In this document: positions 7,731 through 64,000 of the stretch, piece after piece | How positions within the stretch are numbered: position 1 is the stretch's first letter | Layout of the letters: each line of letters begins with the position of its first letter | Assembly (NCBI GenBank): GCA_965645245.1 | Contig: OZ287067.1 | Location: 1,736,001 to 1,800,000 of the forward strand | DNA from: Massalongia carnosa | Lineage: Eukaryota | Direction: 5' to 3' | Length of the DNA stretch: 64,000 bases | Translations under genes and position numbers: made by a program | The notes under the pieces: generated by a model | Databases searched by the model: none | Seen by the model: the letters and a program-made list of their open reading frames with translations, nothing else | Told to the model about the DNA's origin: nothing

Positions 7731-7743
7731 ACGCGGCGGGGGT
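7706..7743 (+). promoter_or_regulatory. Programmed -1 ribosomal frameshift signal
   Basis: Slippery heptamer G GGA AAA (7706..7712), 5-nt spacer, 9-bp stem 7718..7726/7735..7743. The -1 frame is open into pol. Confidence 0.8.
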
Positions 7744-24238: not shown

Positions 24239-26180
24239 AGTGTTTTTGCCTTTGCAATATCCCTTTTATCGCCACCAAATAATTTATTCTGACTTTCCCC
24301 GGACGTACTAGTCAGAATAGAATTTACACCTGTTTGTTTACTGGTCAAATGACTCTTTCTTTCCTATCCCTATTTATTTGACTATAACGCGTCAAATAAA
24401 TCCTAATCGGGTTAAAATAGACCGTTCCTCGCTAAGGCAGTAAGTCTTATTTAACCCTTTACCAGACACTACAATAGGTGAAAATAATGAAAGTTTTTTT
24501 TTTGCTTTTTTCAATAAAGATAAATTTTAATGCAATGTAAGACAATAGGAGACTTCCTATTCTGATTAATCTGAAACAGGACCTTTGGTATAATCCTATT
24601 CCAGACGTTTTTCCCCTTCTTTTCAGTGATCTGTTGACCGGCCGTTCAACGAAGATCTATAAAGCCGAAAATGGAATTTGCAAAAATTATACGTGAAATA
24701 TGCTATGAAAATTTGTGCTTGCGGAAGTTCCCGTAACCTTAAATGAGGAATGAACTTTAGAAGACTCTGACGTCGCGACAGTTGTTGTACAGTCCCGCGA
24801 GAGTAGATAATTTTTGTAGATAATTTTTATAGTAATAATTGAAGGTCATGCGACAACAGAACAGAAGAAAACAAGAAAAAAGAGCGATTTTTGGTGAGGT
24901 TGTTGGTATTTGTTGTTTTTTCCAACTTCTAGAGCGCGCTTTATCACGTCGGTCGCGTGCGACCAGCAGAAAAACTCTGCTGGAGCTTTGCTAGAGCTCT
25001 CCTACACTCAATCTGAGAGCGTTTTAACTCTGGAGGAGCGCAAATGACTGAGAAATAGAGGCTCAATTGACTGTTAAAGTTATAGTGTATCAAAAGTTGC
25101 GGTACTTGTGTTTTTTGTTGTTCAGGCGTTGGTTCTTTAGAAGACTTTCGTTTTTAATTCTATTTGCAATTTCAATATTATGAACAACGTTCATTACAGC
25201 GTCAATTGCAAAATGATTTTTGCGTCCGCCCATCTGTTTGATATCGAGTAAATTCGAATTTTCGCCGAAGTAGGCTAGTCGATTTGCAACGATTTTCTCA
25301 GCAATTTTTCCAAGACAATTTAGAAATCTGATAATTCGATATGATTTTGGAAACGAATAGTCTGATTTATTAGGTTTTTTCAGAACTGCACCGAGTCCTG
25401 TCCGCTAGCATAACGGGTAATAACCGATTCGAATGAATTTCGAATAAATCCTGAAAAACACGTTTTTAAACGATTGAAACGAATTTTGAACAATTGTAAA
25501 ATTGATTTCATCAGGTCCACATGCTTTCTTCGGATTAAATAAACTAATCGCATTTTTCAACTCGTGTTCGGATAAATCTGGCCAATTATCGTCATTTGCG
25601 CTGTCTTGATTTGATAAATCTTCCATATTATCGTCACTTAATGGGTTTTTTGTGTATATTGCTGACACAAATGCTTCGCATTTCTCATCAAACTTAACAT
25701 TTAGTTTGTTTTCATGTAGAATCGGAGGTACATTTTCGAATATGCGCGGTTTAGTATATTTATACGCGGTAAATACATCTTTATTTGCTGCATTTTCTAG
25801 AAAAGTCAACCAGGTTTGTTGTTTTGCTTTTCGAATTGCATGAAAATACTCGATTCGACTATGTTTAAACGTCCGATGACTAAAATCGGACGGATAATTC
25901 TTCCATTCTCGACGATGTCTGCACATGGTTTTTCGAAGTTCAGTTAAATCTTGCGACCACCAATTTTTCGATTTTGCACAAATTTTTTCGTTTTCGGAAT
26001 AAACATTTCAGTCGCGTTTTGTTATAGCGCCGCTGTATAAGGTTGATTATTACTAACGTATTAGCCACCCATTCGGGCCAGCCACCCAATCGGGCCACCC
26101 CTCAAAATCTAGTAGCCGAATATTAATCTTTTCCTTCCAATCCACCACCATCACTCCTTTATCGATAAACTATATATAAA

Positions 26181-28386: not shown

Positions 28387-31300
28387 ACTACACCTGTTTA
28401 ATTTCAACCATTCGACAAGATTTTGTGATCGAATTGCTTGTTGAATTTTCGAATTCAACCAGTAATGTTGTGCATTGAAATCTCCACAGATGACGAATTT
28501 ATCAGTTGATTTAGGTTGTAATTGGATTAAAAGTCGATCGATCGTGTATTTTTCTCGATCACTTTGACTTTTTTCGTTATAAATATTGAAAATCTGCACT
28601 TTTCGAACTTCATCAATTGTAATTTCCATAATTTGCATATCGGAATCGTAAATAAGATCCGTTCTAGGCGTGCATTGCAGTTTAGGATTGCCTTTTGTGA
28701 AAAATATAGCTACTCTCAAGCGATAAGTCGCTTTTTTTGGCATAATACATGTAAATGACGAATGTGATATTGTTTTTTGATCTTTTGTCCATGGTTCCTG
28801 AAACATTACAATATCAATTTGATTTGATAAAGCATAGTCCAAACACGATATCATTGCATTCGTTGACTTTGCACAATTATGTTGAATAAATTTAACATTT
28901 TGTGTATTTTCGATGTTTGTCAACGAATGCTGTCCTGCCATTACAAAGCGGCTAATTCGTCTGTCGATTTTCGAACATTTAACGATAAAACCATTTCACA
29001 ATTTTCATCATTGGATTGATGATTCTTGTTGCAATTCGCGCATTTGACGACGACGTGTGCACAAGCAATTTTTTGACTTGCATGTTGTGCTTTCATGACT
29101 GCGTGTTTCATGGTTTTGCGCACATATGCTGCTTTTCGCTTGACTTTTGCATTGATAATGCTTGTGTCCAAATTTTTGATAATTAATACATTTTGTTTTT
29201 GGATAAACGGAGGTAAATATTTCCGTGTCACAATTTCGGCCCGCGATATTGACTCCTTTTAACACGTTCAAGGCCATATTTCGATCATTGAATGTCAAAA
29301 CAACAGATAATTTTATCTTGTTATGACGATCACGTGCTAGCCATCTGGAAACATCGCATAATTACATGTTCGAATTGAACTTTTTAATTTCGTCTTGCAA
29401 ATATTGCAAGTTTTCATCAAATGTTGCAATATTTACACCGTGTGCGACGACTTTGAACCACGATTCGTCCTTTCGAACTCAGAATAAATGCTCCCATATT
29501 GATTTATTGTTCAATAAATCTTCAGCAGTGTTATCAGGACTAGTAGTCAGAACGATATTTTGACCCGTTTTGGACTTTTCGACCGTGTTAACAACGATAG
29601 TCAATTTCGCGTCTTTAAAAAGCGAATTGATTTGGTTTCGAAGCAACAGTGAATCGATATCGCCGATTTTGGCTTTCGGTGTGATTATCAACCGTCGAGA
29701 TTTGATCGCCTTGAAATCGTCAGTATTATCGAATTTGTTCGCATTCGAATTATTGTTGTTGTTCTTGTTTGTTTTTTTGGATCGAGAACGGTAGTCCAAT
29801 TTTTGGAATTGACAGTCGCTTTTCCGAGTATTTGGCTCCATGTTCTAGCTGTATCGTTGACCTGCGGACCTGTGACTCCGGCGGTTTCGCTCCGAATTTC
29901 TGGGTTGACGTTTTTAGTCAAATTGGAATTTCTATTTGAATTTCCCTTCGATTTTGTCTTTACAGGTTGCACCGATTTTCTCTTTGTTTCTGGAATTTGT
30001 AGAGTTTGTTCTAGCACCCTATTCAATTTCCAATCAATCATTTCTAACGTTGCTTTTGGCTTGATCGATTTCTTTGCCAGTACATAATTGACGTGATCGA
30101 TGACCATAGCCGTTTCGGGGTTTTAATCTATTACGAATGACTCCAATAATGCATTTTTTGCCGTATTCAATAGTTGAATCGATTTTGATCGATTGATGAC
30201 TTCTTGACTTTCAATCGAATGTTCGTCAAATGTTCGTCTTTTGTTGCGTTTAATTGGTGGACTCAGTCGAATATCAGAATTCAATGATGGCATGGGCAGA
30301 TTGGTACTTAATTCACCAGATGGCGCGACAAAAGATTTCGCTTTTGGGGTGGGTGTGGACGGTGCGGACGAAAATTCTCGCGTTTGGTCCATGGCCTCCG
30401 TGGATTCTACGGTTAGGGGGTTGCTCCCAATTATCGCTACCGAAGATGGCGTGGGGGAGTCGGTTCGGGGGGGGCCCGGGGGTGTACTCGGGGGGACCCA
30501 TAGATGTTGTGGAGTGGGGCCTGGGGGAGGAGTTTTTGGTATCAATCGATTTGGTCTATTACCTATCGGGTTAAATCTTCGATTGAGCATAGTGTTTTTG
30601 CATTTGCAATATCCCTTTTATCGCCATCAGATAATTTATTCTGATTTTCCCTGGACGTACTAGTCAGAATAGAATTTACACTTGTTTACTGGTCAAATGA
30701 CTCTTTCTTTCCTATCCCTATTTATTTGACTATAACGCCACAAATAAATCCTAATCGGGTTAAAATAGACCGTTCCTCGCTAAGGCAGTAAATATTATTA
30801 AACAATTTACCAGACACTACAATAGGTGAAAATAATGAAAGTTGTTTTTTGCTTTTTTCAATAAAGATAGATTTTAATGCAATGTAAGACAATAGAAGAC
30901 TTCCTATTCTGATTAACCTGAAACAGGACCTTTGGTATAATCCTATTCCAGACGTTTTTCCCCTTTTTTTCAGTGATCTGTTAACCGGCCGTTCAACGAA
31001 GATCTATAAAGCCGAAAATGGAATGTGCTAAAATTATATGTGAAATATACTATGAAAATTTGTGCTTGTGGAAGTTCCCGTAACCTTAAATGAGGAGTGA
31101 ACTTTAGAAGACTTTGACGTCGCGTGAATTTTTATGATGATGATGATGTATTCATACTCCGATATGACACCGGCCGTAGGCCGGCCCATGCGGGCAAAGC
31201 TATCTAAGTTATATTACATGGAAAACCTTTCACAGGTGTAAAAACCATGTCCCTTGATACCCGTCCGATGTGACTACGTGTCGACGTCGGCCGGGAGACG

Positions 31301-37914: not shown

Positions 37915-40900
37915 AGTGTTTTTGCCTTTGCAATATCCCTTTTATCGCCACCAAATAATTTATTCTGACTTTCCCCGGACGTACTAGTCAGAATAGAATT
38001 TACACCTGTTTGTTTACTGGTCAAATGACTCTTTCTTTCCTATCCCTATTTATTTGACTATAACGCGTCAAATAAATCCTAATCGGGTTAAAATAGACCG
38101 TTCCTCGCTAAGGCAGTAAGTCTTATTTAACCCTTTACCAGACACTACAATAGGTGAAAATAATGAAAGTTTTTTTTTTGCTTTTTTCAATAAAGATAAA
38201 TTTTAATGCAATGTAAGACAATAGGAGACTTCCTATTCTGATTAATCTGAAACAGGACCTTTGGTATAATCCTATTCCAGACGTTTTTCCCCTTCTTTTC
38301 AGTGATCTGTTGACCGGCCGTTCAACGAAGATCTATAAAGCCGAAAATGGAATGTGCAAAAATTATACGTGAAATATGCTATGAAAATTTGTGCTTGCGG
38401 AAGTTCCCGTAACCTTAAATGAGGAATGAACTTTAGAAGACTCTGACGTCGCGACAGTTGTTGTACAGTCCCGCGAGAGTAGATAATTTTTGTAGATAAT
38501 TTTTATAGTAATAATTGAAGGTCATGCGACAACAGAACAGAAGAAAACAAGAAAAAAGAGCGATTTTTGGTGAGGTTGTTGGTATTTGTTGTTTTTTCCA
38601 ACTTCTAGAGCGCGCTTTATCACGTCGGTCGCGTGCGACCAGCAGAAAAACTCTGCTGGAGCTTTGCTAGAGCTCTCCTACACTCAATCTGAGAGCGTTT
38701 TAACTCTGGAGGAGCGCAAATGACTGAGAAATAGAGGCTCAATTGACTGTTAAAGTTATAGTGTATCAAAAGTTGCGGTACTTGTGTTTCTTGTTGTTCA
38801 GGCGGGTTTCGACACTCCTTGCCTCGAAGTTTGTCAGCTATTTTGTTGCATGCGGAGGAGATGATCTTCAATTGGCCTCCGGCTCGGAGCCGGTACCTTG
38901 CCTGTGCTTGTAGCATGTCGAGATGCGTGTCTATGGGCGCTATGAATGTCTCTACTTCTAGTACTGAGATGGGAGTGGCTTTAAAGGCACCGGCTATGGC
39001 GCGAAGGCAATTGTTTTGAATGACGGAGAGCTTGCTCGTTGACGTTTTTGACTTTTTGACTTCTTTGGGCATGTGCCATACGGTTGACCCATATGTCATG
39101 GCCGGACGCACCACGGCACTGTAAACCTGCCTTGCCTTGGCGAAGGTGGCACCCCAGGTTGATGTGGAAATTTTTGTCAATGCCATGGATTGTTTGACTA
39201 TTTTCTCTTGCGTTTTGCGAACGTGCGGTCCCCATTTCAATTTGGTGTCGATTTGTAGGCCCAATACTCTGATGTCCGTTTTAGGTTCAATTTCGGTGCT
39301 AGCAATATTGATGGATGCAGTCATGTTAAATCTTTTGGGATTTCTGGACAAGTGTATGAGTTCGTACTACGTCGGAGCGAATACGGACCCGTGCCGGGAA
39401 GCCCACGTCTCACATTGTCTGTGTATTGCCTCTAGAGTTTTGCAGTTTTCCTCGGTACTTTTTCCATATGCCAAAATGTTTCCGTCGTCTACGAATCCTA
39501 TGGCACTTGTGTTTTTGCCTGGTCGATCACATATTTCCAAGAGATCTGCATTGTAAAATAGGTAAAGAATGGACGACAGGGGAGAGCCCTGCGGGATACC
39601 CGTTCTTACCGCAAACCGCCCAGTGACTTTTCGATTTATTGCTAAAGTGGTGCTTCGATCGCTCAGAAAGCTGTTTAACCAGTCGGTGATCCATTTTGGA
39701 ATTTTTCTTTTCCGTAGGTTGTGCGTTAGTCGTTGATGTGATAACGTATCGAACGCGCCGGCGACATCCATGCTTAGCAGTTTGGCTACTTTGTCTTTTC
39801 CCTGACCCCAAATCGTGTGAACCTGTTCAGTTAGCAGTTCCAGTGCTGACTCTTTGGATCTGCCCTTCCTTGCTCCCATCTGTGTATCGGGTAGGAGCCG
39901 GTGTTTTTCCGCCAGATAGGTTATTTTCGATCCAATGATGGATTCCATAACTTTACTGAGCGTGTTGAGCAGTGCAATTGGTCGGTAGGCTTTCGGCGTG
40001 GTATAGTCTCCTTTGCCTATTTTTTTCAGCGCTATTGTGTTTGCCATTTTGAAGGCCCGCGGGTGGTACGAGTGTATGACGCACGCCTGAAACAGAGGTG
40101 TTAGTAGTTCCACAAGTATTTCGCTGCATGCTTTGAGTATTCTGTTAGATATGCCGTCTGGGCCCGGTGCCTTATCGGACTTGAGCCGACTCAGGGCCGT
40201 CGATACTTCTGACTTGGTGATGATTATTGGGCAGTGCGGCGATGTAGGATAGAAGGATCCTTCTATGTCGCTTAGGTCGGCCGGTGGTGGTGCGGGAAAG
40301 AAGACACCTTTCAGCATTTCGGCTTTTTGCTCAAACGTGTCTGCTACTTGGTCATTGAATTTTAGCATCGGCATTTTGGATACTTCTCTAGATTGATGAC
40401 TTTTGTCTTTGGCCTATTTCGCTAGCCGCCATAGTCCCTGAGGCGTTTCGGTGGCCTTATTGATTTCTTGACGAAAGTTTGTTCTCTTTGCCTTTTGAAT
40501 GATTTTCTGTTTTTTATCATTGGATTTCATATAGTTAGACCAGTCCGTTAGATCTAACGTGCTGGACCATATGCGGCGTAGTTTCCGTGTGGCTTTGGTA
40601 GCAATGCTGCATTCTTCTGTCCAGAATGGCTTAGCATATTCGCTAGATTTTGCCCATGGAACTGCTTCGTTGATGACATTTTGTAGAAATTTTTGAATCG
40701 ATTCCGTGTACGCATCAATCTCGGCAGTGGTACGGGGAGACTGCGGTATAGGGGCGTGTCGTTCGGCCTCCCTTAATTTTTCCAGGTTTAGAAGTTTCCA
40801 TGCTCTGCGTTTGATTTTCGGTTGCGGCTCGCTTCCGAGTAGGATGCGGGTTGATATCGGCACGTGATCGGACGATTGATTCAATTCTGGTCTGGACATG

Positions 40901-49967: not shown

Positions 49968-50874
49968 AAGACGTCAAAGCAATAAGCCAACCCCCAAAAC
50001 ATCGGTACCCTATATTTTGATATACTGAAACTTTCCCAACTTATTCTCCTCATTCTTTTCATTCATTTGAGCCTACCAGAAACTAAAACCCATCAGAATT
50101 GGGTACAGGAGAGCTCTTCCACTGCTCCTGCAGAGTTTTCCTCGCGGTCTGTCCGCCCCTTCACCAAAAAGCGCGTCCAAAAAATCTACAAAACACAAAA
50201 ACACCAACAACAACGTCAAAAATCGCTCGATTTTCGATATTTCTTCGGTTTAATTGTCGCATAGATCTCATCTATTATCACAAAAATTATCTACAAAATA
50301 TCATCACTGTCGCGTAACTGTACAACCTGTTCTCGAGACAACAAAATTTCTTGGTGTTCATTTGAAATTAAAGGTTACCGGTACCGTATACACTATTCCA
50401 TTTTGGGTTTTTTCGATTTTCGTTGAACTGCCGACCAACAATCTGCTGAAACGAAGGGGAAAAACGTCTGAAATAGGGTTAAACCAAAGGCCCTGTTTCA
50501 GGCTAACCAGAATAGGAAGTCTCCTCTCTCTCATTGTACTTGATTTTTATTTCTGGATCAAAAACATTTTTTTAAAAAAAAAATTTTCTGTTCGATCGTA
50601 AAATTCTTATTATATTCAATATATCGTAGTGTCAAGGTAAAGAGTTAAATAAGATCTATTGCCTAAGCGAGGAACGGTCTATTTTAACTCGACTAGGATT
50701 TATTTGACTTGTTATTGTCAAATAAATAGGGTTTGGAAAGCAAGAGTCTTTAGACCAGTAAATCGGCGTAAAAACTCTCTATTCTGACTATTACGTCCGG
50801 GGAACGTCAGAATAAATTATTTGGTGGCGATAAAGGGGATATAGCAAAGGCAACATCGATTTATTTATAAATCC

Positions 50875-52459
50875 ATGTTTAACGCGGTAATGAACCGCCG
50901 GAATATACCAAGGACACCACCCCCAGCCGGTCCCGCCCCCCTATCGACCCCTTACCCGGCCCCCCCCCGACTCTCCCCCGGACCATCTCCGGTGGCGTTG
51001 ATAGGGAGCTCTCCCCGTCTTGAACCTATGGATCAAACTCGCGAATATGCATCAGCCCCGTCCACACCGACACCAAAGGCAACGAAATTCCCATCGGGTC
51101 CATTTTCCACTATCTTGCCGATGCCTTCATTGAACTTAAATATTGGATCAAGCCCACCAATCAAACGAAATAAAAGACGCACATTTGACGAACATTCGAG
51201 AGATAGCCAAGAAGCGATCAATCGGGCAAATTCAATTGAGCTTCTAAAGTCGGCCAAAAAAGCATTATTGCAATCATTTGTACTGGACCAAAATCCACAA
51301 ACGGCTATCGTAATTGACAACGTTAATTCGTTGATTTCGAAAAAATCAATCAATTTACAAACATCTTTTGATATGATTAACTATAAAATAGGCATAGTAC
51401 TTGATCAAACTAGTCATCTTTCCTCAAAAACGTCACAACAACAAACGACTCCACTACAGAATGGTCCAAAAATCCAAAAACCTATTGTTAAATTGAACGA
51501 AAATTCAATTATCGAAAATCAGACCATTCGCAAAGGAGCCACCGGGGTCTCTGGTAACAATGTTAGCACAACCGGTACATGGAGTCAAATGCTTGGAAAA
51601 GCAACCGAAAACTTCGAAAATTGGACTACTATTCAAAGGAAAAGTTCGAATCATAATTCGAACAAAGTCGATCGATTTGATGCAATCAAGGCCAGACGAC
51701 TCGTAATTTCACCGAAAAATCCTGACGCTCAAATCGACTCTATGAAGCTGCGTGATCAAATTAACGAGCTATTAAAAAACGCAAATTTAAACATCATCGT
51801 CAATACTGTTGAAAAGTCCAAAACCGGTCAGAATATCGTTCTCACCACTAGCCCTGACAACAATGCAGAAGAATTGTTGAAAAATAAATCTTCATGGGAA
51901 CACATTTTCGAATCACAAAGAATTCGAAAAGACGAATCCTGGTTTAAAGTCATAGCACACGGAGTAAATATCTCGTTATTCGATAATAACATGCAATATT
52001 TGCAAACCGAAATCGAAAAATACAATTCGAATATGCAACTATGCGATTTACCAAGATGGCTTGCGCGGGACCGTCAAAACAAAGTCACGTCGTCGGTAGT
52101 TTTGACTTTCAATAATCAAAATCAAGCGTCAAACGCGTTAAGAGGCGTGAATATCGCGGGTAGACATTGTGACACGGAAAATATTTGCATCCGTTCGTCC
52201 AAACACGCAATGTATTAATTGTCAGAAATTTGGACATAAGCATTATCAATGCAAAAGTCCGGCAAAATGCAATATATGCGCACAAAGTCATGAAACGCAT
52301 AATCATGAATGCACAACATGCAAGTTTAAAATCGCATGCGCACATGCAATTCTGAAATGCGTCAATTGCAACAAAAATCATCAATCGAACGATATAGGTT
52401 GCGAAATGTTTATCTCGCTAAATCCTAGAAAATCGAATGATGAATTAATGCTTGGTTAA
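50875..52459 (+). pseudogene. A2 ORF1 with one frameshift near 52180
   Basis: ORFs 50875..52218 and 52169..52459 together cover an ORF1 homologue. Confidence 0.9.
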
Positions 52460-55400
52460 TGGCGGGACAACATTCGTTGACAAATATCGAAAATACACAA
52501 AATGTCAAATTTATTCAACATAATTGTGCAAAGTCAACGAATGCAATGATTTCGTGTCTGGAATATGCAGTATTAAATCGTGTTGATATTGTTTTATTTC
52601 AGGAACCATGGACGCGAGATCAAAAAACAATTTCCCATCCGTCATTCACATGTATTATGCCGAAAATAGCGACTTATCGGCCGAGAGTAGCTATATTCGT
52701 TACAAAATGCAATCCAAAATTACAATGCACGCCTAGAACGGATCTTATAAACGATACTGATCTGCAAATTATCGAAATTACAATTGATGAAGTTCGAAAG
52801 GTGCAGATCTTTAACCTTTACAATGAAAAAAGTCTAAACGATCGAGAAACATATACAATCGATCGACTTTTAGTTAAATATCAACCTATATCAACTGATC
52901 AATTTGTCATATGTGGAGATTTCAATGCACATCATAGCTGGTGGAATTCGAAGATTCAAAATGCAATTCGATCAGAAAATCTAGTCAAATTGTTAAAATT
53001 AAACAAATGTAGTTTGATAAATACGCCTGATCTATATACATTTTTTGCTCATTCAGGAAACTCTTCATCTATTATTGATTTAACATTTGCAAATTCTAAA
53101 ATCGAAAACGCAATTACAAATTGGTCAATCGATGGAAACGCAGTCACGGGTTCAGATCATGAAGTTATTCGATTTGAACTTATAGCGTCTTTCAAGAACT
53201 TGACGACACACGCAACCGCATTATCGAAAAAATACAACTGCAATAAAGCCGATTGGGATAAATTCGCGAAGTTTCTAGACGAAAATGCAGTAAACTACGA
53301 GTCCCAAATACAAAGTCTATTGAACAATTATCAATTTGATGAATCAGCGTTATATTTGCAAAACGTTATCAAAAACGCGGCTGAAATGTTTATTCCGAAG
53401 ACAAAAATATGCGCAAAATCGAAAAATTGGTGGTCGCAAGATTTAACCGGACTTCGAAAAATCATGTGTAGACATCGTCGAGAATGGAAGAATAATCCGT
53501 CCTATTTCAGTCATCAAACATTTAGATTTAGTCGAATCGAGTACTTTCATGCAATTCGAAAAGCGAAACAGCAAACTTGGTTGGCTTTCCTCGAAAACGC
53601 AGCGAATAAAGACGTATTTACAGCTTATAAATACACTAAACCGCGCATGTTCGAAAAAATACCCCCTATTCAATATGAAAATAAGTTAAATGTTCAATTC
53701 GATCACAAATGCGATGCGTTTGTGTCAGCAATGTACACAAAAAACCCGTTCACTGAAGATAATATTGAAGATTTAACGAATCAAGACAGCGAAAATGAAA
53801 ACAATTGGCCGAATTTAACCGAAAATGAATTGCAAAATGCGATTAGTTTGTTTAATCCAAAGAAATCATGTGGGCCTGATACAATCAATTTCACAATAAT
53901 TCAAAAATCGTTTCAACCATTGAAAAACGTGTTTTTTACTATTTATTCTAAATTTATACAAATCGGTTATCACACGTTATGTTGGCGAACAGGACTTGGT
54001 GCTGTTTTAAAAAAAACCTAATAAACCAGACTACTCGCTGCCAAAATCATATCGAATTATTTATTACCTTACTGAATTGTCTTGGTAAAATTGCGGAGAA
54101 AATAGTTGCTAATCGACTAGCCTACCTCGGCGAAAATTCGAGCTTGTTAGATACCGAACAAATGGGCGGACGGAAAAATCATTCTGCAATCGATGCGGTA
54201 ATGAACGTCGTTCATGATATCGAAATCGCAAACCGAAACAAAAACGTATTATCATGTCTATTACTCGATTTCAAAGGAGCATTTGACTTTGTTTCGATTA
54301 ATCAATTGATAAATGTCATGAAAAAGCTGCATTTATCTCGCATTGTTATTCAATGGGTCAAGCATTTTATGACAAAACGATCGATCAATTTGATATTCGA
54401 TGAACACAAAAGCAAAACGTACTATATCGAATCTGGAATTACACAAGGTTCACCAATTTCGCCAATTCTATTTCTGATTTATATTCGTTACTTATTTCCG
54501 AAAATACGAATGAAATTCAATGCTCATTCACCTAGCTTTATAGACGATGTTGCAATATATGTCGAAAATAAAACTGCCACACAGAATTGCAAAGAAATCG
54601 AAATTATCGTCAAAACAGCTTTTGATTGGGCCGCAACGAATAATGTCAAATTTGATGACGACAAATCTGAGTAGATTCACTTCGAAAAGTCAAGAAATGC
54701 ATCAAAAGACAAAGTGCAATTACCAAACGGGACAATACTAGAAACGAAAAATTCTGTCAAATGGTTAGGAGTCTGGTTAGACCGAAAACTAAATTACAAA
54801 AAACACGTCGAAACGCGAATTGCTTCTGCAAATCGATCGTTTTTCGCAATTCAAAATTTGATGAAGTCTGAATGGGGACTAAAGCCAACTGCATGCAGAG
54901 AGCTCTATTTGTCATGCATTATTCCTATTTCGGACTATGGCTCAGAAATCTGGTATAACGGTCAAAAGAAATATGAAAAGCTATTTCAGAATCTGCAAAA
55001 TCGAATGATTCGAAAGATTTTAGGCACATTCAAAACCACGCCTGTTCAGGCGATGGAAATTGAATCGCATATTTTACCAGCCAAGCTACGATTGTTGATG
55101 AAAAATCAAAAATACGCAATTCGATTATTGAAGATTGCCGAAAATAATCCTATTTGTCAAAGAATTCCCAGTACCTATACGGTGAAATTTGAAAACATCT
55201 GTTTTGACACTAGTTTATGGAACAACAGATATGTTGAATGGAACGAAGACGAGAAAAAATCGAGTAAACCTCATCCTAGTCAGCTTATCCGTATTCTTCA
55301 TTCCGTTTCGGATATAGTTCACAAAACTGATGAATTCGAATCAGTAAATAATTTCATCAAACCATGGAAGCCGTCTTGTAAAATCAAGTTCCAAATCGAA

Positions 55401-56474
55401 AGATCAAAAGAAACAGCAAAGTCAAGTTATTATTCGACTTTATCAAAAATTCAATCAATAAACGCCGATAAATCGCAAATTTTACTCTATACCGATTGAT
55501 CAAAAACCGAGTTTTCAACTTCCGCTGTCACATTTGCACCAATTACGCGAAATTGGAACAATTTCACCGATAAATTCAATCGTTTTATTGAAAAAGATTG
55601 TCTCCTCAAACATCATACGATTTCGAAAAGCTGGAAATTAAACAAACAGTCAAGCGTTAAAAACGCTGAACTGTATGCGATACTACAAGCAATAAAATGG
55701 GCATACAAATTGACAATTGCGAATATTCTCTTCAATTTGGAAAAAACGATTTGGATTTTTTCCGATAGCATAAATGCGATAAACGAAATTCAGAACTTGA
55801 CAAATCATACTTACGCAAAACAAATTCGAAAATTCTCGAAATGCTTATTCGGAAACAATTATCAGGTGGTTCTACAATGGATTCCTGGTCATTCGAAAAT
55901 CGTCGAAAATGAAATTGCAGATAAAGCAGCAAAAGCGGGACATAGTCGAATCCTAGTCGAGTCTTCGATAATAACATTTGATTATGTGAAGGGTCAAATA
56001 AATCGAAATATGTTAGCCACATGGGCGAATCAATGGCAACAATGCAAGTCAAAAGGCAAATACTATGAGAAATTCGAAATGCAGCCGGGCAAATCGAGTT
56101 TTTATTATCTGTCGAATAATTGTTCTAAATTAATATTTGCAACTATTATGCAAATGAAATTCGGACACGGTTATTTTCGATCATATCTGCACCGATTGAA
56201 AGATTATAATTCGTCAAAATGCACAGGGCGCTGCAACGAACGTCAAACGCCAGAACACTTATTGATGAATTGCATACATTATTCAAATGAAATCCTAAAC
56301 ATGAAACAAAATATCGATACCACAATTACTTTAAAAATGTTGTTTAATACTAGGATCGGAAATAATATTTTGATTAAATTTATTGTTGATAACAAAATCG
56401 CGGCTAGAAAATGGATGCTAGGTCAGCTCGATGACGAAAAAATCGAAACGGGAGGTTGGGGAGAGATCGATTAG
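52459..56474 (+). pseudogene. A2 ORF2 with frameshifts and stops
   Basis: Fragments 52459..54021, 53979..54674, 54714..55499 and 55710..56474. Confidence 0.92.
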
Positions 56475-56710
56475 AAATGATTTATGCTGGAATATTTACG
56501 AGCTTTACAAAAACAAATTTTAAAATCGATATTTCGATTACTAAAGGTTGTTACTAACACGGAGTAAAAACGGGGCAATATTGACGATACATAGTTGGGT
56601 TATAAAGGGTTGATTTATTTGTAAAATAAAACCATATCTTAAAATAGTTTAGTGTCATAACCTTAGGTTGAATACACTTAATGAATAAATAAATAAAAAA
56701 ATAAAAAAAA

Positions 56711-56778
56711 TTCGAATCGGTTATCACCCGTTATGCTGGCGGACAGGACTCGGTGCAGTTCTGAAAAAACCTAATAAA
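56711..56778 (+). mobile_element. LINE-A copy 7, left ORF2 fragment (host of copy 8)
   Basis: Encodes RIGYHPLCWRTGLGAVLKKPNK and continues at 63606. Confidence 0.85.
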
Positions 56779-57328
56779 GGTCAATTTTTGCAAAAAATTA
56801 TCGAAGGCCTGAACAACAAGAAACACAAGTACCGCAACTTTTGATACACTATAACTTTAACAGTCAATTGAGCCTCTATTTCTCAGTCATTTGCGCTCCT
56901 CCAGAGTTAAAACGCTCTCAGATTGAGTGTAGGAGAGCTCTAGCAAAGCTCCAGCAGAGTTTTTCTGCTGGTCGCACGCGACCGACGTGATAAAGCGCGC
57001 TCTAGAAGTTGGAAAAAACAACAAATACCAACAACCTCACCAAAAATCGCTCTTTTTTCTTGTTTTCTTCTGTTCTGTTGTCGCATGACCTTCAATTATT
57101 ACTATAAAAATTATCTACAAAAATTATCTACTCTCGCGGGACTGTACAAAAACTGTCGCGACGTCAGAGTCTTCTAAAGTTCATTCCTCATTTAAGGTTA
57201 CGGGAACTTCCGCAAGCACAAATTTTCATAGCATATTTCACGTATAATTTTTGCACATTCCATTTTCGGCTTTATAGATCTTCGTTGAACGGCCGGTCAA
57301 CAGATCACTGAAAAGAAGGGGAAAAACG

Positions 57329-57695
57329 TCTGGAATAGGATTATACCAAAGGTCCTGTTTCAGATTAATCAGAATAGGAAGTCTCCTATTGTCTTACATT
57401 GCATCAAAATTTATCTTTATTGAAAAAAGCAAAAAAAAAACTTTCATTATTTTCACCTATTGTAGTGTCTGGTAAAGGGTTAAATAAGACTTACTGCCTT
57501 AGCGAGGAACGGTCTATTTTAACCCGATTAGGATTTATTTGACGCGTTATAGTCAAATAAATAGGGATAGGAAAGAAAGAGTCATTTGACCAGTAAACAA
57601 ACAGGTGTAAATTCTATTCTGACTAGTACGTCCGGGGAAAGTCAGAATAAATTATTTGGTGGCGATAAAAGGGATATTGCAAAGGCAAAAACACT
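57329..57695 (+). promoter_or_regulatory. Conserved structured RNA region in the LINE-A 5' UTR (IRES-like candidate)
   Basis: Four hairpins with compensatory or loop-only changes relative to the A2 copy at 50467..50814. Confidence 0.6.
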
Positions 57696-59354
57696 ATGCT
57701 CAATCGAAGATTTAACCCGATAGGTCATAGACCAAATCGATTGATACCAACAACTCCTCCCCCAGGCCCCCCTCCACAACATCTATGGGTCCCCCCGAGT
57801 ACTCCCCCGTGCCCCCCCCGAACCGACTCCCCCACGCCATCTTCGGTAGCGATAATTGGGAGCAACCCCCTAACCGTAGAATCCACGGAGGCCATGGACC
57901 AAACGCGAGAATTTTCGTCCGCACCGTCCACACCCACCCCAAAAACGAAACCTTTTGTCGCGCCATCTGGTGAATTCAGTACCAATCTGCCCATGCCATC
58001 ATTGAATTCTGATATTCGACTGAGTCCACCAATTAAACGCAACAAAAGACGAACATTTGACGAACATTCGATTGAGAGTCAAGAAGTCATCAATCGATCA
58101 AAATCGATTCAACTATTGAATACGGCAAAAAATGCATTATTAGAGTCATTCGTAATAGATCAAAACCCCGAAACGGCTATGGTCATCGATCACGTCAATT
58201 CTCTACTGGCAAAGAAATCGATCAAGCCAAAAGCAACGTTAGAAATGATTGATTGGAAATTGAATAGGGTGCTAGAACAAACTAGCCAAATTCCAGAAAC
58301 AAAGAGACAATCGGTGCATCCTATACAGACAAAATCGAAGGGAAATTCAAATGGAAATACGAATTTGACTCAAAACGTCAACCCAGAAATTCGGAGCGAA
58401 ACCGCCGGAGTCCCAGGGCCGCAGGTCAACGATACAGCTAGAACATGGAGCCAAATGCTCGGAAAAGCGACTGTCAATTCCGAAAATTGGACTACCGTTC
58501 CTCGATCCAAAAAAACAAACAAGAACAACAACAATAATTCGAATGCGAACAAATTCGATAATACTGACGATTTCAAGGCGATCAAATCTCGACGATTGAT
58601 AATCACACCGAAAGCTCAAATCGGCGATATCGATTCACTGTTGCTTCGAAACCAAATCAATTCGCTTTTTAAAGACGCGAAATTGACTATCGTTGTTAAC
58701 ACGGTCGAAAAGTCCAAAACGGGTCAAAACATCGTTCTGACTACTAGTCCTGATAACACTGCTGAAGATTTATTGAACAATAAATCAATATGGGAGCATT
58801 TATTCGACCCACGAACAGTTCGAAAGGACGAATCGTGGTTCAAAGTCATCGCACACGGTGTAAATATTGCAACATTTGATGAAAACATGCAATATTTGCA
58901 AGACGAAATTCAAAAGTTCAATTCGAACATGCAATTATGCGATGTTCCCAGATGGCTAGCACGTGATCGTCATAACAAGATCAAATCATCCGTTGTTTTG
59001 ACATTCAATGATCGAAATATGGCCTTGAACGCGTTAAAAGGAGTCAATATCGCGGGCCGACATTGTGACACGGAAATATTTACCTCCGTTCGTCCAAACA
59101 CACAATGCATTAATTGTCAAAAATTTGGACACAAGCATTATCAATGCAAAAGTCAAGCGAAATGCAGCATATGTGCGCAAAACCATGAAACACGCAATCA
59201 TGAATGCACAACATGCAAGTCAAAAATTGCTTGTGCACACGCCGTCGTCAAATGCGCGAATTGCAACAAGAATCATCAATCCAATGATGAAAATTGTGAA
59301 ATGGTTATATCGTTAAATGTTCGAAAATCGACTGACGAATTGGCCGCTTTGTAA
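57696..59354 (+). CDS. LINE-A ORF1 (552 aa)
   Basis: Intact, with CCHC knuckles. Confidence 0.95.
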   Translation: MLNRRFNPIGHRPNRLIPTTPPPGPPPQHLWVPPSTPPCPPRTDSPTPSSVAIIGSNPLTVESTEAMDQTREFSSAPSTPTPKTKPFVAPSGEFSTNLPMPSLNSDIRLSPPIKRNKRRTFDEHSIESQEVINRSKSIQLLNTAKNALLESFVIDQNPETAMVIDHVNSLLAKKSIKPKATLEMIDWKLNRVLEQTSQIPETKRQSVHPIQTKSKGNSNGNTNLTQNVNPEIRSETAGVPGPQVNDTARTWSQMLGKATVNSENWTTVPRSKKTNKNNNNNSNANKFDNTDDFKAIKSRRLIITPKAQIGDIDSLLLRNQINSLFKDAKLTIVVNTVEKSKTGQNIVLTTSPDNTAEDLLNNKSIWEHLFDPRTVRKDESWFKVIAHGVNIATFDENMQYLQDEIQKFNSNMQLCDVPRWLARDRHNKIKSSVVLTFNDRNMALNALKGVNIAGRHCDTEIFTSVRPNTQCINCQKFGHKHYQCKSQAKCSICAQNHETRNHECTTCKSKIACAHAVVKCANCNKNHQSNDENCEMVISLNVRKSTDELAAL

Positions 59355-62300
59355 TGGCAGGACAGCATTCGTTGACAAACATCGAAAATACACAAAATGT
59401 TAAATTTATTCAACATAATTGTGCAAAGTCAACGAATGCAATGATATCGTGTTTGGAATATGCTTTATCAAATCAAATTGATATTGTTTTGTTTCAGGAA
59501 CCATGGACACGAGATCAAAAAACAATATCACATCCGTCATTTACATGTATTATGCCAAAAATAGCGACTTATCGCTCGAGAGTAGCTATATTTGTCACAA
59601 ATGGCAATTCCAAACTGCAATGCACGCCTAGAACGGATCTTATTGACGATTCCGATATGCAAATTATTGAAATTACAATTGATGAAGTTCGAAAAGTGCA
59701 GATTTTCAATATTTATAACGAAAAAAGTCAAAGTGATCGAGAAACATACACGATCGATCGACTTTTAATCCAATTACAACCAAAATCAACTGATCAATTC
59801 GTCATCTGTGGAGATTTCAATGCACATCATAACTGGTGGAATTCGAAAATTCAACAAGCAATTCGATCAGAAAATCTTGTCAAATGGTTGAAATTAAACA
59901 GGTGTAGCTTGATAAACACACCTGACTTATGTACATACTACGCCCATTCTGGAAGTTCTTCATCTGTTATTGATTTAACTTTTGCAAATTCTAAAATCGA
60001 AAATGCAATTACAAATTGGTCAATCGATGAAAACGCAGTCACAGGTTCTGATCATGAAGTCATCCGATTTGAACTAATCGCATCTTTCAAAAACTTGACG
60101 TCACATGCAACCGCATTATCGAATAAATACAATTGCAATAAAGCTGATTGGAATAAATTCGCGAAGTATCTAGACGAAAATTCAACCATCTACGAATCAC
60201 AAGTTCAAAGTTTATTGAATAATCATCAATTCGACGAATCAGCGATATATTTGCAAAACGTTATCAAAAACGCGGCTGAAATGTTTATTCCGAAAACGAA
60301 AATTTGTGCAAAATCGAAAAATTGGTGGTCGCATGATTTAACTGAACTTCGAAAAACCATGTGCAGACATCGTCGAGAATGGAAGAATTATCCGTCCGAT
60401 TTTAGTCATCGGACGTTTAAACATAGTCGAATCGAGTATTTTCATGCAATTCGAAAAGCAAAACAACAAACATGGTTGACTTTTCTTGAAAATGCAGCAA
60501 ATAAAGATGTATTTACCGCGTATAAATACACTAAACCGCGAATATTCGAAAAAATACCGCCGATTCTACATGAAAACAAGCTAAATGTTCAGTTTGATGA
60601 CAAATGCGATGCATTTGTGTCAGCAATGTATACAAAAAACCCATTTATTGACGATAATGAGGAAGATTTATCAAATCAAGACAGCGTAAATGATGATAAT
60701 TGGCCAGATTTGACCGAAAACGAGTTGAAAAATGCGATTAGTTTATTTAATCCGAAGAAAGCATGTGGACCTGATGCAATAAATTTTACAATTGTTCAAA
60801 AATCGTTTCAATCGTTGAAAAACGTGTTTTTCATGATTTATTCGAAATTCATTCGAATCGGTTATCACCCGTTATGCTGGCGGACAGGACTCGGTGCAGT
60901 TCTGAAAAAACCTAATAAATCAGACTATTCGCTACCAAAATCATATCGAATTATCACATTACTAAATTGTCTTGGTAAAATTGCTGAGAAAATCGTTGCA
61001 AATCGACTAGCCTACTTCGGCGAAAATTCGAATTTACTAGATATCGAACAGATGGGCGGACGCAAAAATCATTCTGCAATTGACGCAGTAATGAACGTCG
61101 TTCATGATATCGAAATTGCGAATCGAAATAAAAGCGTTCTATCCTGTTTATTACTCGATGTCAAAGGCGCATTTGACTTTGTCTCGATTAATCAACTGCT
61201 AAATGTCATGAAAAAGCTGAAATTATCTCGCATAATAATTCAATGGGTCAAGCATTTCATGACAAAACGATCGATCAATTTGATATTCGATGAAAACAAA
61301 AGCAAAACATATTATGTCGAATCAGGAATTCCACAAGGTTCACCAATCTCGCCTATTCTATTTCTGATTTACATTCGTCACTTGTTTCCGAAAATAAGAA
61401 TGAAATTTAATGCACATTCTCCCAGTTTTATTGACGATGTTGCAATATATGTCGAAAATAAAACTGCAAAACAAAATTGCAAAGAAATCGAAATCATAGT
61501 CAAAACAGCTTTTGATTGGGCCGCATCGAATAATGTCAAATTTGATGACGATAAATCCGAGCTGATTCACTTCGAAAAGACAAGAAATGTATCGAAAGAC
61601 ACATTGGAATTACCAAACGGGACAGTACTAGAACCGAAAAATGTAGTCAAATGGTTGGGCGTCTGGTTAGACCGGAAACTGAATTTCAAAAAACACGTCG
61701 AAACGCGAATCTCTTCTGCGAATCGATCGTTTTTTGCAATTCAAAATTTGATGAAATCCGAATGGGGTTTGAAACCGACCGCATGCAGACAGCTCTATTT
61801 GTCATGCATTATTCCTATTTCGGACTATGGCTCAGAAATTTGGTATAATAGTCAAAAGAAATATGAAAAACTATTTCAGAACCTACAAAATCGAATGATT
61901 CGAAAGATTTTAGGAACTTTCAAAACCACACCTATTCAGGCGATGGAAATTGAATCACATGTTTTACCAGTTAAACTTCGATTATTAATGAAAAATCAAA
62001 AATACGCAATTCGATTATTGAAGATTGCCGAAAATAACCCTATTTGTCAAAGAATTCCAAATACATATTCGATAAAATTCGAAAACATCGGTTTTGACAC
62101 TAGTTTATGGAACAACAAATATGCCGAATGGAACGAAGACGAAAAACAAACAAATAAACGACATCCTAGTCAGCTCATTCGCGTTCTTCATTCCGTTTCC
62201 GACATAGTTCACAAAACTGATGAGATTGAACAATCAAATCATTTTATTAAACCATGGAAATCGCCGTGCAAAATCGAATTTCAAATCGAAAATACAAAGG

Positions 62301-63367
62301 AATCTGCTAAATCAAGTTATTATTCGACCTTATCCAAAATTCAATCAATGAACTCCGATAAATCCCGAGTTTTACTTTATACGGATGGATCAAAAATCGA
62401 ATTTGCAACGTCTGCAGTCACATTTGCGCCAATTATGAGGAATTGGAGTAGTATTATCAATAATTTTGATCGATTTATCGAAAAAGATTGTCTGATCAAG
62501 TATCATACGATTTCGAAAAGCTGGAAATTAAGCAAACAGTCAAGCATTAAAAATGCTGAACTGCATGCAATTTTACAAGCAATGAAATGGGTCTATAAAT
62601 TGTCTAATACTAATATTTTATCGAACTTGGAAAAAACGATTTGGATTTTTTCTGATAGTATAAACGCGATAAACGAAATTCAGAACTTGAAAAATCATAT
62701 TTTCGCAAGACAAATTCGAAAGCTCGCAAAACGCTTATTTGAAAGCAATTATCAGGTGATTTTGCAATGGGTTCCGAGTCATTTGAATATTACCGAAAAC
62801 GAAATTGCAGACAAAATAGCAAAGACGGCCCATAATCAAATCCTAGTCGAGTCCTCGGCTATAACATTTGATTATGTAAAAGATCAAATAAATCAAAATA
62901 TGCTAACCACATGGACGAATCAATGGCAACAATGCAAATCAAAAGGCAAATACTACGAGAAATTCGAAATGAAACCTGGCATATCGAGATTTTATTATTT
63001 ATCAAACAACTGTTCCAAATTGATATTTGCCACTATTATGCAATTAAAATTCGGACACGGCTATTTTCGATCATATTTACATCGGTTGAAAGATTATAAT
63101 TCGTCAAAATGCTCAAATCGATGCAATCAACGACAAACGCCAGAACACTTGTTATTGAATTGCATTCACTATTTCGATGAAATTCAAAACATGAAACAAA
63201 CCATCGATACTACGATCAACTTGAATATGTTGTTTAATACAAAAATCGGAAATGACATTTTGATTAAATTCATTGTCAATAACAAAATCGCGACTAGAAA
63301 ATGGATACTAGGTCAGCTTGATGACGATATTTTCGAAACTGGAGGTTGGGGAGAGATCGAACAGTAA
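59354..63367 (+). CDS. LINE-A ORF2 (1337 aa) EN-RT-RH
   Basis: Intact; catalytic motifs present. Confidence 0.97.
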   Translation: MAGQHSLTNIENTQNVKFIQHNCAKSTNAMISCLEYALSNQIDIVLFQEPWTRDQKTISHPSFTCIMPKIATYRSRVAIFVTNGNSKLQCTPRTDLIDDSDMQIIEITIDEVRKVQIFNIYNEKSQSDRETYTIDRLLIQLQPKSTDQFVICGDFNAHHNWWNSKIQQAIRSENLVKWLKLNRCSLINTPDLCTYYAHSGSSSSVIDLTFANSKIENAITNWSIDENAVTGSDHEVIRFELIASFKNLTSHATALSNKYNCNKADWNKFAKYLDENSTIYESQVQSLLNNHQFDESAIYLQNVIKNAAEMFIPKTKICAKSKNWWSHDLTELRKTMCRHRREWKNYPSDFSHRTFKHSRIEYFHAIRKAKQQTWLTFLENAANKDVFTAYKYTKPRIFEKIPPILHENKLNVQFDDKCDAFVSAMYTKNPFIDDNEEDLSNQDSVNDDNWPDLTENELKNAISLFNPKKACGPDAINFTIVQKSFQSLKNVFFMIYSKFIRIGYHPLCWRTGLGAVLKKPNKSDYSLPKSYRIITLLNCLGKIAEKIVANRLAYFGENSNLLDIEQMGGRKNHSAIDAVMNVVHDIEIANRNKSVLSCLLLDVKGAFDFVSINQLLNVMKKLKLSRIIIQWVKHFMTKRSINLIFDENKSKTYYVESGIPQGSPISPILFLIYIRHLFPKIRMKFNAHSPSFIDDVAIYVENKTAKQNCKEIEIIVKTAFDWAASNNVKFDDDKSELIHFEKTRNVSKDTLELPNGTVLEPKNVVKWLGVWLDRKLNFKKHVETRISSANRSFFAIQNLMKSEWGLKPTACRQLYLSCIIPISDYGSEIWYNSQKKYEKLFQNLQNRMIRKILGTFKTTPIQAMEIESHVLPVKLRLLMKNQKYAIRLLKIAENNPICQRIPNTYSIKFENIGFDTSLWNNKYAEWNEDEKQTNKRHPSQLIRVLHSVSDIVHKTDEIEQSNHFIKPWKSPCKIEFQIENTKESAKSSYYSTLSKIQSMNSDKSRVLLYTDGSKIEFATSAVTFAPIMRNWSSIINNFDRFIEKDCLIKYHTISKSWKLSKQSSIKNAELHAILQAMKWVYKLSNTNILSNLEKTIWIFSDSINAINEIQNLKNHIFARQIRKLAKRLFESNYQVILQWVPSHLNITENEIADKIAKTAHNQILVESSAITFDYVKDQINQNMLTTWTNQWQQCKSKGKYYEKFEMKPGISRFYYLSNNCSKLIFATIMQLKFGHGYFRSYLHRLKDYNSSKCSNRCNQRQTPEHLLLNCIHYFDEIQNMKQTIDTTINLNMLFNTKIGNDILIKFIVNNKIATRKWILGQLDDDIFETGGWGEIEQ

Positions 63368-63605
63368 AATCAGAAACGATTTATGCTGAAACAGTTACGA
63401 ACTTACAAAGATAAATTGTAAAATCGATAATTTTCGATTACTATAGGTTGTTACTAACACGGAGTAAAAATGGGGAAAAATTGACAATACATAGATGGGT
63501 TATAAAGGGTTGATTTATTTGTAATATAGAAACATATCCTAAAATAGTTTAGTGTCATAACCTTAGGTTGAATACACTTAATGAATAAATAAAAAAAAAA
63601 AAAAA

Positions 63606-64000
63606 CAGACTATTCGCTACCAAAATCATATCGAATTATCACATTACTAAATTGTCTTGGTAAAATTGCTGAGAAAATCGTTGCAAATCGACTAGCCTAC
63701 TTCGGCGAAACTTCGAATTTACTAGATATCGAACAGATGGGCGGACGCAAAAATCATTCTGCAATTGACGCAGTAATGAACGTCGTTCATGATATCGAAA
63801 TTGCGAATCGAAATAAAAGCGTTTTATCCTGTTTATTACTCGATGTCAAAGGCGCATTTGACTTTGTCTCGATTAATCAACTGCTAAATGTCATGAAAAA
63901 GCTGAAATTATCTCGCATAATAATTCAATGGGTCAAGCATTTCATGACAAAACGATCGATAAATTTGATATTCGATGAAAACAAAAGCAAAACATATTAT
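63606..64000 (+). mobile_element. LINE-A copy 7, right ORF2 fragment running off the window
   Basis: Resumes DYSLPKSYRIITLL where 56778 stopped. Confidence 0.9.

Follow-up and report, generated by a model that had tools for sequence, protein, structure and literature searches.

LINEs must carry a promoter inside their transcribed 5′UTR, and LINE 5′UTRs, which are modular and swapped, are as a rule regarded as promoters that evolve fast. It is cis-preference, and not a packaging signal, on which LINEs are considered to depend, and to our knowledge no RNA signal for either cis-preference or packaging has been established for these elements. Both in yeast and in mouse L1, cap-independent initiation has been associated with leaders rich in A. 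The translation of human L1 ORF1 is said (Dmitriev et al. 2007) to be cap-dependent and not IRES-driven. For mouse LINE-1, one report claims IRESs upstream of ORF1 and ORF2 (PMC3592465), and in R2 and L1Tc/ingi HDV-like ribozymes at the 5′ side free the element RNA from co-transcripts (PMC3414825, PMC4035085, PMC3383444). Domain IIId of the HCV IRES combines an apical loop of at least three consecutive G with an S-turn (loop E) internal loop, as set out in the relevant part of PMC2726286.

Here, we examine the leader of a LINE, referred to as LINE-A, in Massalongia carnosa (GCA_965645245.1, contig OZ287067.1, positions 1,736,001-1,800,000 of the forward strand); this stretch of 64,000 nt is the window, and all coordinates below are positions within it. 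The first-pass annotation had read the region upstream of ORF1 as an IRES-like structured domain, supported by compensatory changes, that would allow nested copies to be translated from read-through transcripts. That first reading is corrected here, as the sequence argues for scanning and against an IRES. In this fungal LINE, hairpins adjacent to the start codon are retained between subfamilies whose leaders are otherwise saturated with changes, and 0.9 kb is kept almost AUG-free.

LINE-A and its copies in the window

The window is a nest of retroelements. One copy of LINE-A, A1a, occupies 56804-63605 on the + strand (6.8 kb), its limits being taken from self-BLAST and from an alignment of three copies, and its 3′ end carries an A15 (poly(A)) tail. 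Its parts are as follows:

56804..57695, + strand, 5′UTR of the full-length copy A1a (892 nt; sole upstream ATG at 57085)
57696..59354, + strand, ORF1 (552 aa; C-terminal end with three CCHC-type knuckles)
59354..63367, + strand, ORF2 (1337 aa; AP endonuclease, reverse transcriptase and RNase H by Pfam)

The start of ORF2 overlaps the stop of ORF1 as UAAUG. The knuckles of ORF1, identified by eye from the alignment, comprise one CX2CX4HX4C and two CX2CX3HX6C, and Pfam returned no match for this protein, zinc-knuckle included, even at E ≤ 10. The closest named relatives of ORF2 are ascomycete proteins (Lasallia, 42-43%; Sclerotinia, 33%). LINE-A looks like a Tad1-like LINE of an ascomycete, given an APE-RT-RNase H ORF2, a CCHC ORF1 and a poly(A) tail, which are the traits of the Tad1 clade, an assignment made from these traits rather than from a clade-level tree. 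Its ORF1 is of the gag-like, knuckle-bearing type I, which PMC4120745 reports from the Tad1, I and Jockey clades.

LINE-A is a young, very abundant element. Three copies in the window are intact (A1a on the + strand, A1b and A1c on the − strand), with identities of 98.6-98.8% across the whole element and of more than 99.6% in the leader, and all three sit downstream of same-orientation LINE sequence. Two diverged copies allow a comparison over longer distances: A3, whose leader is 94% identical to that of A1, and the subfamily copy A2, which shares 80% identity with A1 overall and 72% in the leader. Other subfamilies of this LINE family are represented by ORF1 proteins of 66-67% identity. The domain considered here, 57283-57695 in A1a, is the 3′ half of the 892-nt A1 leader, and its counterparts lie at the following positions:

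37915..38327, − strand, domain in the intact copy A1b (from the alignment of copies)
24239..24651, − strand, domain in the intact copy A1c (from the alignment of copies)
30591..31001, − strand, domain in A3, a 5′-truncated copy with broken ORFs
50421..50874, + strand, domain in the subfamily copy A2 (element 49997-56705, ORFs broken)

A1a, A1b and A1c have one 5′ end in common. A clear target-site duplication of 13 bp accompanies A1b, and such a duplication is absent or unclear for A1a and A1c. The single, precise 5′ end of the young copies indicates that their templates were element-length RNAs and not read-through transcripts, which speaks against the earlier proposal that nested copies are translated from read-through RNA.

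Conserved modules in the 3′ half of the leader

Compared with A2, the domain of A1 falls into three modules separated by two linkers:

57283..57400, + strand, module M1 with hairpin 1 (divergence from A2 19/115, 0.165)
57401..57459, + strand, A-rich linker with A10 at 57431-57440 (divergence from A2 22/59, 0.37)
57460..57572, + strand, module M2 with hairpins 2 and 3 (divergence from A2 14/113, 0.124)
57573..57612, + strand, linker (divergence from A2 16/40, 0.40)
57613..57682, + strand, module M3 with hairpin 4 and a further 33 nt (divergence from A2 4/70, 0.057)

The neutral proxies for the same comparison are 0.32 at the four-fold sites of ORF2 and 0.35 in the 5′ half of the UTR. Since the divergence of the linkers matches these values, the linkers appear to evolve freely and the modules to be under purifying selection. 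Stops run throughout all three frames of the domain, so its conservation is not coding, and a coding reading was dropped for this reason. Conservation within the modules is not confined to the stems: the loops and the 33 unpaired nt that follow hairpin 4 share it to the same degree. The linker of A2 carries an A10 run of its own, and the first linker (57401-57459) shows a 3-nt length variant in sequencing run X11.

Variation was followed in run X1, with 2702 contig pieces of the leader, and in runs X9, X10 and X11, each of which covers parts of the stretch only. The listing for X1 gives 37 places with a common variant (12 further exist); 31 of these fall in 56804-57282, five in 57283-57695 and one in ORF1; common variants tend to avoid the domain, a statement about the trend and not about the count.

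Four local hairpins and the evidence for their pairing

The four stems reported at first reading are found exactly where they had been placed, letter for letter. Hairpin 1 pairs 57329-57340 with 57353-57364 and extends to 15 bp (57328-57342/57351-57365), of which five are G-U pairs in A1. Hairpin 2 is branched, with an outer stem (57477-57484/57518-57525), an inner stem of 5 bp (57487-57491/57511-57515) and an apical stem of 4 bp (57497-57500/57504-57507). Hairpin 3 (57533-57543/57552-57562) is AU-rich and comprises 11 bp. Hairpin 4 (57615-57623/57641-57649), of 9 bp, closes 46 nt upstream of the ORF1 ATG (57696), and its loop of 17 nt holds AGUA (57625-57628), GAA (57637-57639) and a G run (GGGG); on its 3′ side follow the 33 conserved, mostly unpaired nt of M3.

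The alignment of copies also bears out the differences between A1 and A2 that had been described, namely A-U to G-C in stem 1, G-C to A-U in stem 2, changes confined to the loop in hairpin 3, and AUUA in place of AGUA. In the inner stem of hairpin 2, CU becomes UC in A2 opposite GG, and pairing is kept only via wobble. In A3, stem 2 is disrupted, as are the upper parts of hairpins 3 and 4, and the supposed key motif reads CCAGGG. The AGUA/GAA strands are present in the three A1 copies and in A3, and in A2 without the G; as a motif pattern, this part of hairpin 4 occurs in LINE-A copies only, with 4 matches versus 0.27 expected.

None of the five listed X1 variants in the domain breaks a claimed stem: 57490 C>T, in the inner stem of hairpin 2, turns C-G into U-G and keeps the pair, 57545 and 57551 both lie in the loop of hairpin 3, and the other two are one variant private to A1a and one at a junction. 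A subfamily is visible in the sequencing-run data as a loose end at 57597, with a changed 5′ arm of hairpin 4, in a view that covers the 5′ arm only.

For a statistical evaluation, helices of at least 8 bp were taken from the fold of A1 only, which avoids circularity (44 pairs, 88 nt, from hairpins 1, 2 (outer), 3 and 4). A2 carries 8 substitutions in these 88 nt; six pairs are changed, of which five are kept (two of them by double changes) and one is broken. When the same substitutions were re-dealt within the helices, a mean of 3.8 pairs were broken, giving P(broken ≤ 1) = 0.004, and the probability of at least two double changes was 0.016. The four changed pairs of hairpin 1 are all kept. 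In A3, by comparison, seven helix substitutions break 6 of 7 changed pairs, which is null-like, and the two copies differ in pair keeping (Fisher p = 0.029). Between A1 and A2, substitutions are also sparser in the helices than elsewhere (8/88 versus 80/331, p = 0.002).

The number of independent sequences is three (A1, A2 and A3), two of them broken copies, and the covariation alignment has four rows. Among its 48 pairs, 35 are invariant, two are changed on both sides and five show one-sided compatible changes, and the covariation score is matched or exceeded by 27/500 shuffles, a borderline result. On balance, the local hairpins are very probably real, selected structures of the sense RNA.

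A further explanation is that the domain has no function of its own, the hairpins being chance inverted repeats and the uneven divergence a product of recombination or mosaic ancestry between subfamilies. We regard this as very improbable, since conserved and neutral blocks alternate four times in 400 nt, for which a single recombination is insufficient, substitutions in helices keep pairing in A2 and not in the dead copy A3, and common variants of the source genome avoid the domain. What speaks for it is the very small sample, the borderline covariation, the known modularity and swapping of LINE 5′UTRs, and the folding scores considered next, since z values of −3 to −4 are reached in three coding windows too.

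Folding energy and strand preference

The domain (414 nt) folds more stably than its dinucleotide shuffles in both subfamilies (z −3.25 in A1, −3.32 in A2). For the antisense strand of the entire domain, z is −2.72, as inverted repeats would lead one to expect, and the first 480 nt, that is, the 5′ half of the UTR, show no excess folding over shuffles (z −0.73). The A1/A2 consensus fold of 57283-57402 has an energy of −27.7 kcal/mol on the + strand, the lowest in the element, with an SCI of 0.89, and in a sliding-window analysis its z is −4.0 on the + strand versus 0.0 on the − strand. Of 65 windows along the element, 7 reach a z of −3 or lower on the + strand, and three of the 7 are coding, so z-scores alone are not special. 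The global MFE fold is not conserved, as 40 of its 120 pairs are changed in A2 and 25 of these are broken, no better than the null. A long-range global fold of the domain was dropped on this account, only the local hairpins holding in A2. The idea of a structured RNA domain before ORF1 is supported at the level of the local hairpins, by modular conservation, kept pairs and sense-strand G-U pairs, and not at that of a global fold.

The strand preference of individual hairpins differs. Hairpin 1 has an energy of −18.9 kcal/mol on the + strand versus −5.7 on the − strand in A1, and of −22.9 versus −11.1 kcal/mol in A2; for hairpin 2 the values are −16.7 on the + strand versus −13.2 kcal/mol on the − strand. 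Hairpins 3 and 4, both perfect palindromes, show no difference in stability between the strands. The earlier remark that G-U pairs favour the sense strand accordingly applies, by these energies, to hairpins 1 and 2 and not to hairpins 3 and 4.

This mixed pattern bears on an explanation at the DNA level, in which the modules would be palindromic sites for transcription factors that act on a promoter or enhancer inside the element, and the hairpins would follow from the dyad symmetry of these sites as a side effect. Hairpins 3 and 4, with a common TGAC/GTCA core and equal strength on both strands, look as such sites would, and the loops and the 33 unpaired nt after hairpin 4 are conserved like the stems; moreover, the first 480 nt diverge at the neutral rate (0.35), so that any conserved control elements must sit in 57283-57682. 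Hairpin 1, on the other hand, is a poor DNA palindrome, as five of its 15 pairs in A1 are G-U, and its changes in A2 keep RNA pairing, while the CU to UC change opposite GG in the inner stem of hairpin 2 makes sense only as G-U wobble. The modules also lie 480-880 nt downstream of the common 5′ end, far from a core-promoter position. We therefore judge a DNA-level origin of the conservation to be unlikely.

AUG depletion and the case for scanning

The A1 leader (892 nt) contains one ATG versus 8.6 expected, a number as low in 3 of 2000 dinucleotide shuffles, and the A2 leader (878 nt) contains none versus 9.2 expected, which was reached in 0 of 2000. On the antisense strand, 12 ATGs are present in A1 and 13 in A2. 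Only eight ATG-free stretches of at least 350 nt occur in 128 kb (both strands of the window), and six of them are LINE-A leaders, two from A1a. Five of these six end at the ORF1 ATG; the runs concerned measure 611 nt in each of the three A1 copies, and that of A2 is 1101 nt long. In A3 the ATG-free run stops at a gained ATG, 37 nt before the start of ORF1. The one upstream ATG of A1 (57085) is removed by 57087 G>T at roughly one quarter of the depth of X1. Among 39 listed common leader variants, none creates an ATG versus 2.1 expected, a difference that is not significant.

The ORF1 AUG is thus the first or nearly first AUG, and upstream AUGs are depleted on the sense strand only, as in a scanned leader; strand-specific avoidance of AUG across the leader indicates that 40S subunits scan it from the 5′ end. 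Scanning is not blocked by hairpins weaker than about −30 kcal/mol at a large distance from the cap, and no hairpin of the leader is stronger than −23 kcal/mol, which by this rule places them below scanning-blocking strength. As far as the sequence goes, the 0.9-kb leader points to ordinary scanning from the 5′ end rather than to an IRES. AUG depletion shows that the leader is scanned; an additional cap-independent route may be compatible with it.

In the IRES reading, the domain would recruit 40S subunits or initiation factors internally, as an IRES or an enhancer, ORF1 would be translated from uncapped or read-through RNA, and hairpin 4 would be IIId-like. Some of the parts are there. The loop of hairpin 4 offers AGUA and GAA strands together with a G run, which are parts of HCV IIId as presented in the portion of PMC2726286 on that domain, and the earlier description of IIId by a G-rich apical loop and loop E agrees with the same portion. 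An A10 tract lies between modules in both subfamilies, and the position of the young copies behind same-orientation LINE sequence makes read-through geometrically possible.

Internal placement of ribosomes would, nevertheless, need no AUG depletion, which here is sense-only and extends over 0.9 kb. An Rfam scan of 56900-57800 with cmscan at E ≤ 10 gave no IRES family, and the whole 64-kb window gave no match at gathering scores. The 46 nt between hairpin 4 and the AUG contain no IIIe-like or pseudoknot-like partner by eye, and only a weak 4-bp hairpin forms there in the MFE and consensus folds. The supposed key motifs read AUUA in A2 and CCAGGG in A3, although both are dead copies, the 5′ ends common to the copies are precise, and human L1, the closest studied long LINE leader, is reportedly strictly cap-dependent. 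A stand-alone IRES is not supported by these observations, and internal recruitment of 40S subunits or factors by the domain is quite unlikely. A narrower version, in which the IIId-like S-turn/G-loop hairpin and the A-tract would together form a 40S- or factor-binding module for cap-independent translation of ORF1, is a long shot. If it were true, copies nested head-to-tail in other LINEs could be expressed from read-through RNA, and a Tad1-like element would for the first time be credited with a structured IRES, one assembled from the RNA parts that the hepacivirus IRES uses.

A candidate protein-binding domain within a scanned leader

With a probability of roughly one half, we favor the view, based on sequence comparison, that the hairpins constitute a cis-acting RNA domain, embedded in a scanned leader, that binds protein and serves in regulation or in nucleating the RNP. 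In this model, the mRNA would begin at the first base of the element itself, and the sense RNA would form a string of independent local hairpins in the three selected modules. The 40S subunit, whose passage along the whole leader is suggested by AUG depletion, would scan from the 5′ end and melt the moderate hairpins en route to the ORF1 AUG. Most likely, the hairpins and the flanking conserved, single-stranded G-rich stretches would serve as a platform for a protein on the element RNA, the most plausible partner being the gag-like CCHC ORF1 protein of the element itself, or else a host factor. Binding beside the start codon could then tune the translation of ORF1, promote RNP assembly on the encoding RNA, or both. 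If the hairpins do bind the gag-like ORF1 protein, they would explain in physical terms how cis-preference, or a switch from translation to packaging, could come about.

Searches for related sequences

An exact-pattern scan with the most conserved 23-mer found no match in metagenome contigs and none in viral contigs, and a degenerate pattern of hairpin 4 likewise found none in viral contigs. One prokaryotic match of 23 nt, inside an ORF of 713 aa in Enterococcus, was set aside as chance because it has no flanking similarity. For ORF1, an alignment search of metagenome contigs matched 68 pattern stretches, none of which was confirmed, and for ORF2 a corresponding search of viral contigs gave two loci with a reverse transcriptase of 21% identity, which were discarded as unrelated. 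A full-text literature search for structured or IRES-like 5′UTRs in non-LTR or Tad1 elements returned nothing on Tad1-like leaders.

Comparison with known systems

The 5′UTR of human LINE-1 (about 900 nt) resembles the LINE-A leader as a long structured leader of an autonomous LINE that must hold an internal promoter, and the AUG-free LINE-A leader points to cap-dependence too. There is no sequence relation between the two, one element belonging to the L1 clade and the other being Tad1-like with RNase H, and the LINE-A leader is, unlike that of human LINE-1, AT-rich with discrete conserved hairpins. Their ORF1 proteins are also of different types, coiled-coil/RRM/CTD in human LINE-1 versus CCHC knuckles in LINE-A, following the classification in the pertinent section of PMC4120745. 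Mouse LINE-1 is likewise a LINE with an A-rich tract, but has no homology with LINE-A.

Like the HDV-like ribozymes of R2 and L1Tc/ingi, the domain is a structured RNA on the 5′ side of its non-LTR element, and these ribozymes represent a known route to the expression of nested or co-transcribed copies. They reside, however, at the very 5′ end, whereas the first 480 nt of LINE-A show no excess folding, and no ribozyme family was matched: cmscan of 56720-57120 at E ≤ 10 gave three weak, unrelated matches only. A self-cleaving ribozyme at the 5′ end (HDV-like, twister or hammerhead) was rejected for lack of a covariance-model match.

The likeness to HCV-like IRESs is at the level of parts, that is, the AGUA/GAA strands and the G run of hairpin 4. 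The LINE-A domain is without a IIIabc junction, a IIIe hairpin or a IIIf pseudoknot (pseudoknots being judged by eye). In the sarcin-ricin/loop-E (bulged-G) motif, AGUA faces GAA within a helix that Watson-Crick pairs close on either side. In hairpin 4, whose arrangement resembles this motif, the lower helix has 9-10 bp, and a single C-G pair is available to close the motif at the top; if that pair forms, the apical loop keeps two consecutive G only, unlike IIId.

The best Rfam match of the domain is to RT-14 (RF02921), an RNA with two consecutive hairpins that correspond in the alignment to hairpins 3 and 4; in the second, UAGUA...GAA flanks an apical stem of short length. The match scores 26.6 bits versus a gathering threshold of 48.1, with an E-value of 0.07-0.24 depending on search space, and A2 has no RT-14 match at E ≤ 10. 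RT-14 is, unlike LINE-A, a bacterial motif adjoining reverse transcriptase genes, and such RT motifs are proposed, in the part of PMC5737381 that deals with them, to work with reverse transcriptases as retron or DGR RNAs. Being below threshold and absent in A2, membership in RT-14 was rejected, and the likeness is most likely due to chance, driven by a common RNA module.

Finally, the domain is reminiscent of the packaging signals of retroviruses and LTR elements, which are bound by CCHC nucleocapsid, in that a cluster of independent hairpins with exposed G-rich loops lies directly upstream of a gene for a gag-like CCHC protein. By analogy with these systems as they are generally understood, the resemblance may extend to the working principle.

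Nested insertion of LINE-A and neighbouring retroelements

Copies of LINE-A, a 6.8-kb Tad1-like LINE, lie head to tail and in the same orientation throughout positions 45667-64000 (+). The array opens with a 5′-truncated copy, followed by A2, the divergent subfamily copy with broken ORFs (49997-56705, +); a further truncated copy starts a few bases past the poly(A) of A2 and is itself split by the intact copy A1a (56804-63605, +), whose insertion site is AATAAA/T. Extra bases are present at the 5′ junctions of both A1a (about 29) and the intact minus-strand copy A1b (about 12), the latter having a target-site duplication of 13 bp. The window holds two further kinds of retroelement:

6435-11413, + strand: Ty3/gypsy-type LTR retrotransposon (chromovirus)
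38884-42404 and 14055-16271, - strand: second LINE family

The chromovirus carries a 431-aa ORF, for which a Pfam search returned zero matches, followed by pol with reverse transcriptase (RT), RNase H, integrase, and chromodomain. The second LINE family has broken frames and shares only 25-28% ORF2 identity with LINE-A; A1b is inserted, in the shared orientation, at its 3′ side.

Occurrence of the leader in other sequence data

Near-identical pieces of the A1a leader, the 892-nt 5′-UTR (region searched, 56804-57760), occur in runs that span at least 11 organism labels and 13 studies, one run being labelled lichen metagenome. The family is extremely abundant in run X1, with 2702 contig pieces of the leader, and a 249-nt contig in run X9 is identical to 57446-57694. 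The most conserved stretch of M2, the conserved module at 57460-57572, also has an exact 23-nt match in an Enterococcus genome record (L001, 1501-1523, -), where it falls within a 713-aa ORF. Comparison of the flanks of this match with the surroundings of M2 revealed similarity on neither side; the match is taken as chance because, by rough estimate, about 0.02 such matches would be expected.

Variation within the leader

The 5′ half of the leader is fast-evolving, apart from two windows within 56864-57043 (+) in which the A1/A2 consensus fold gives z values of -3.2 and -4.1 with a low SCI (0.45-0.49). Within them lies a perfect hairpin of 8 bp (56951-56971), whose pairing is disrupted in A2. 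Upstream of ORF1 the A1 leader has a single ATG, at 57085, which stands in a weak context and opens a 30-codon uORF (57085-57177); A2 lacks this ATG, and 57087 G>T destroys it in about one quarter of the X1 depth.

Further downstream, the variable linker between the conserved modules contains an A10 tract in both subfamilies (A1a, 57431-57440; A2, about 50574-50583), retained even though its flanking sequence cannot be aligned between A1 and A2; run X11 has a 3-nt length variant here. Internal deletions of 46, 72, 89, and 252 nt within 57280-57613 were found in four rare X1 contigs, each deletion resting on a single low-depth contig.

The ORF1/ORF2 junction

Both subfamilies have the sequence UAAUG at the junction, where the stop codon of ORF1 overlaps the start codon of ORF2 (A1a, 59352-59356; A2, 52457-52461). 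Conserved plus-strand folds lie on either side of the junction, in window 59070-59188 (z -3.6) and in windows spanning 59429-59788 (z -2.4 to -3.6, SCI 0.83-0.89). In the SART1 LINE, termination-reinitiation is known to use this same stop/start arrangement.
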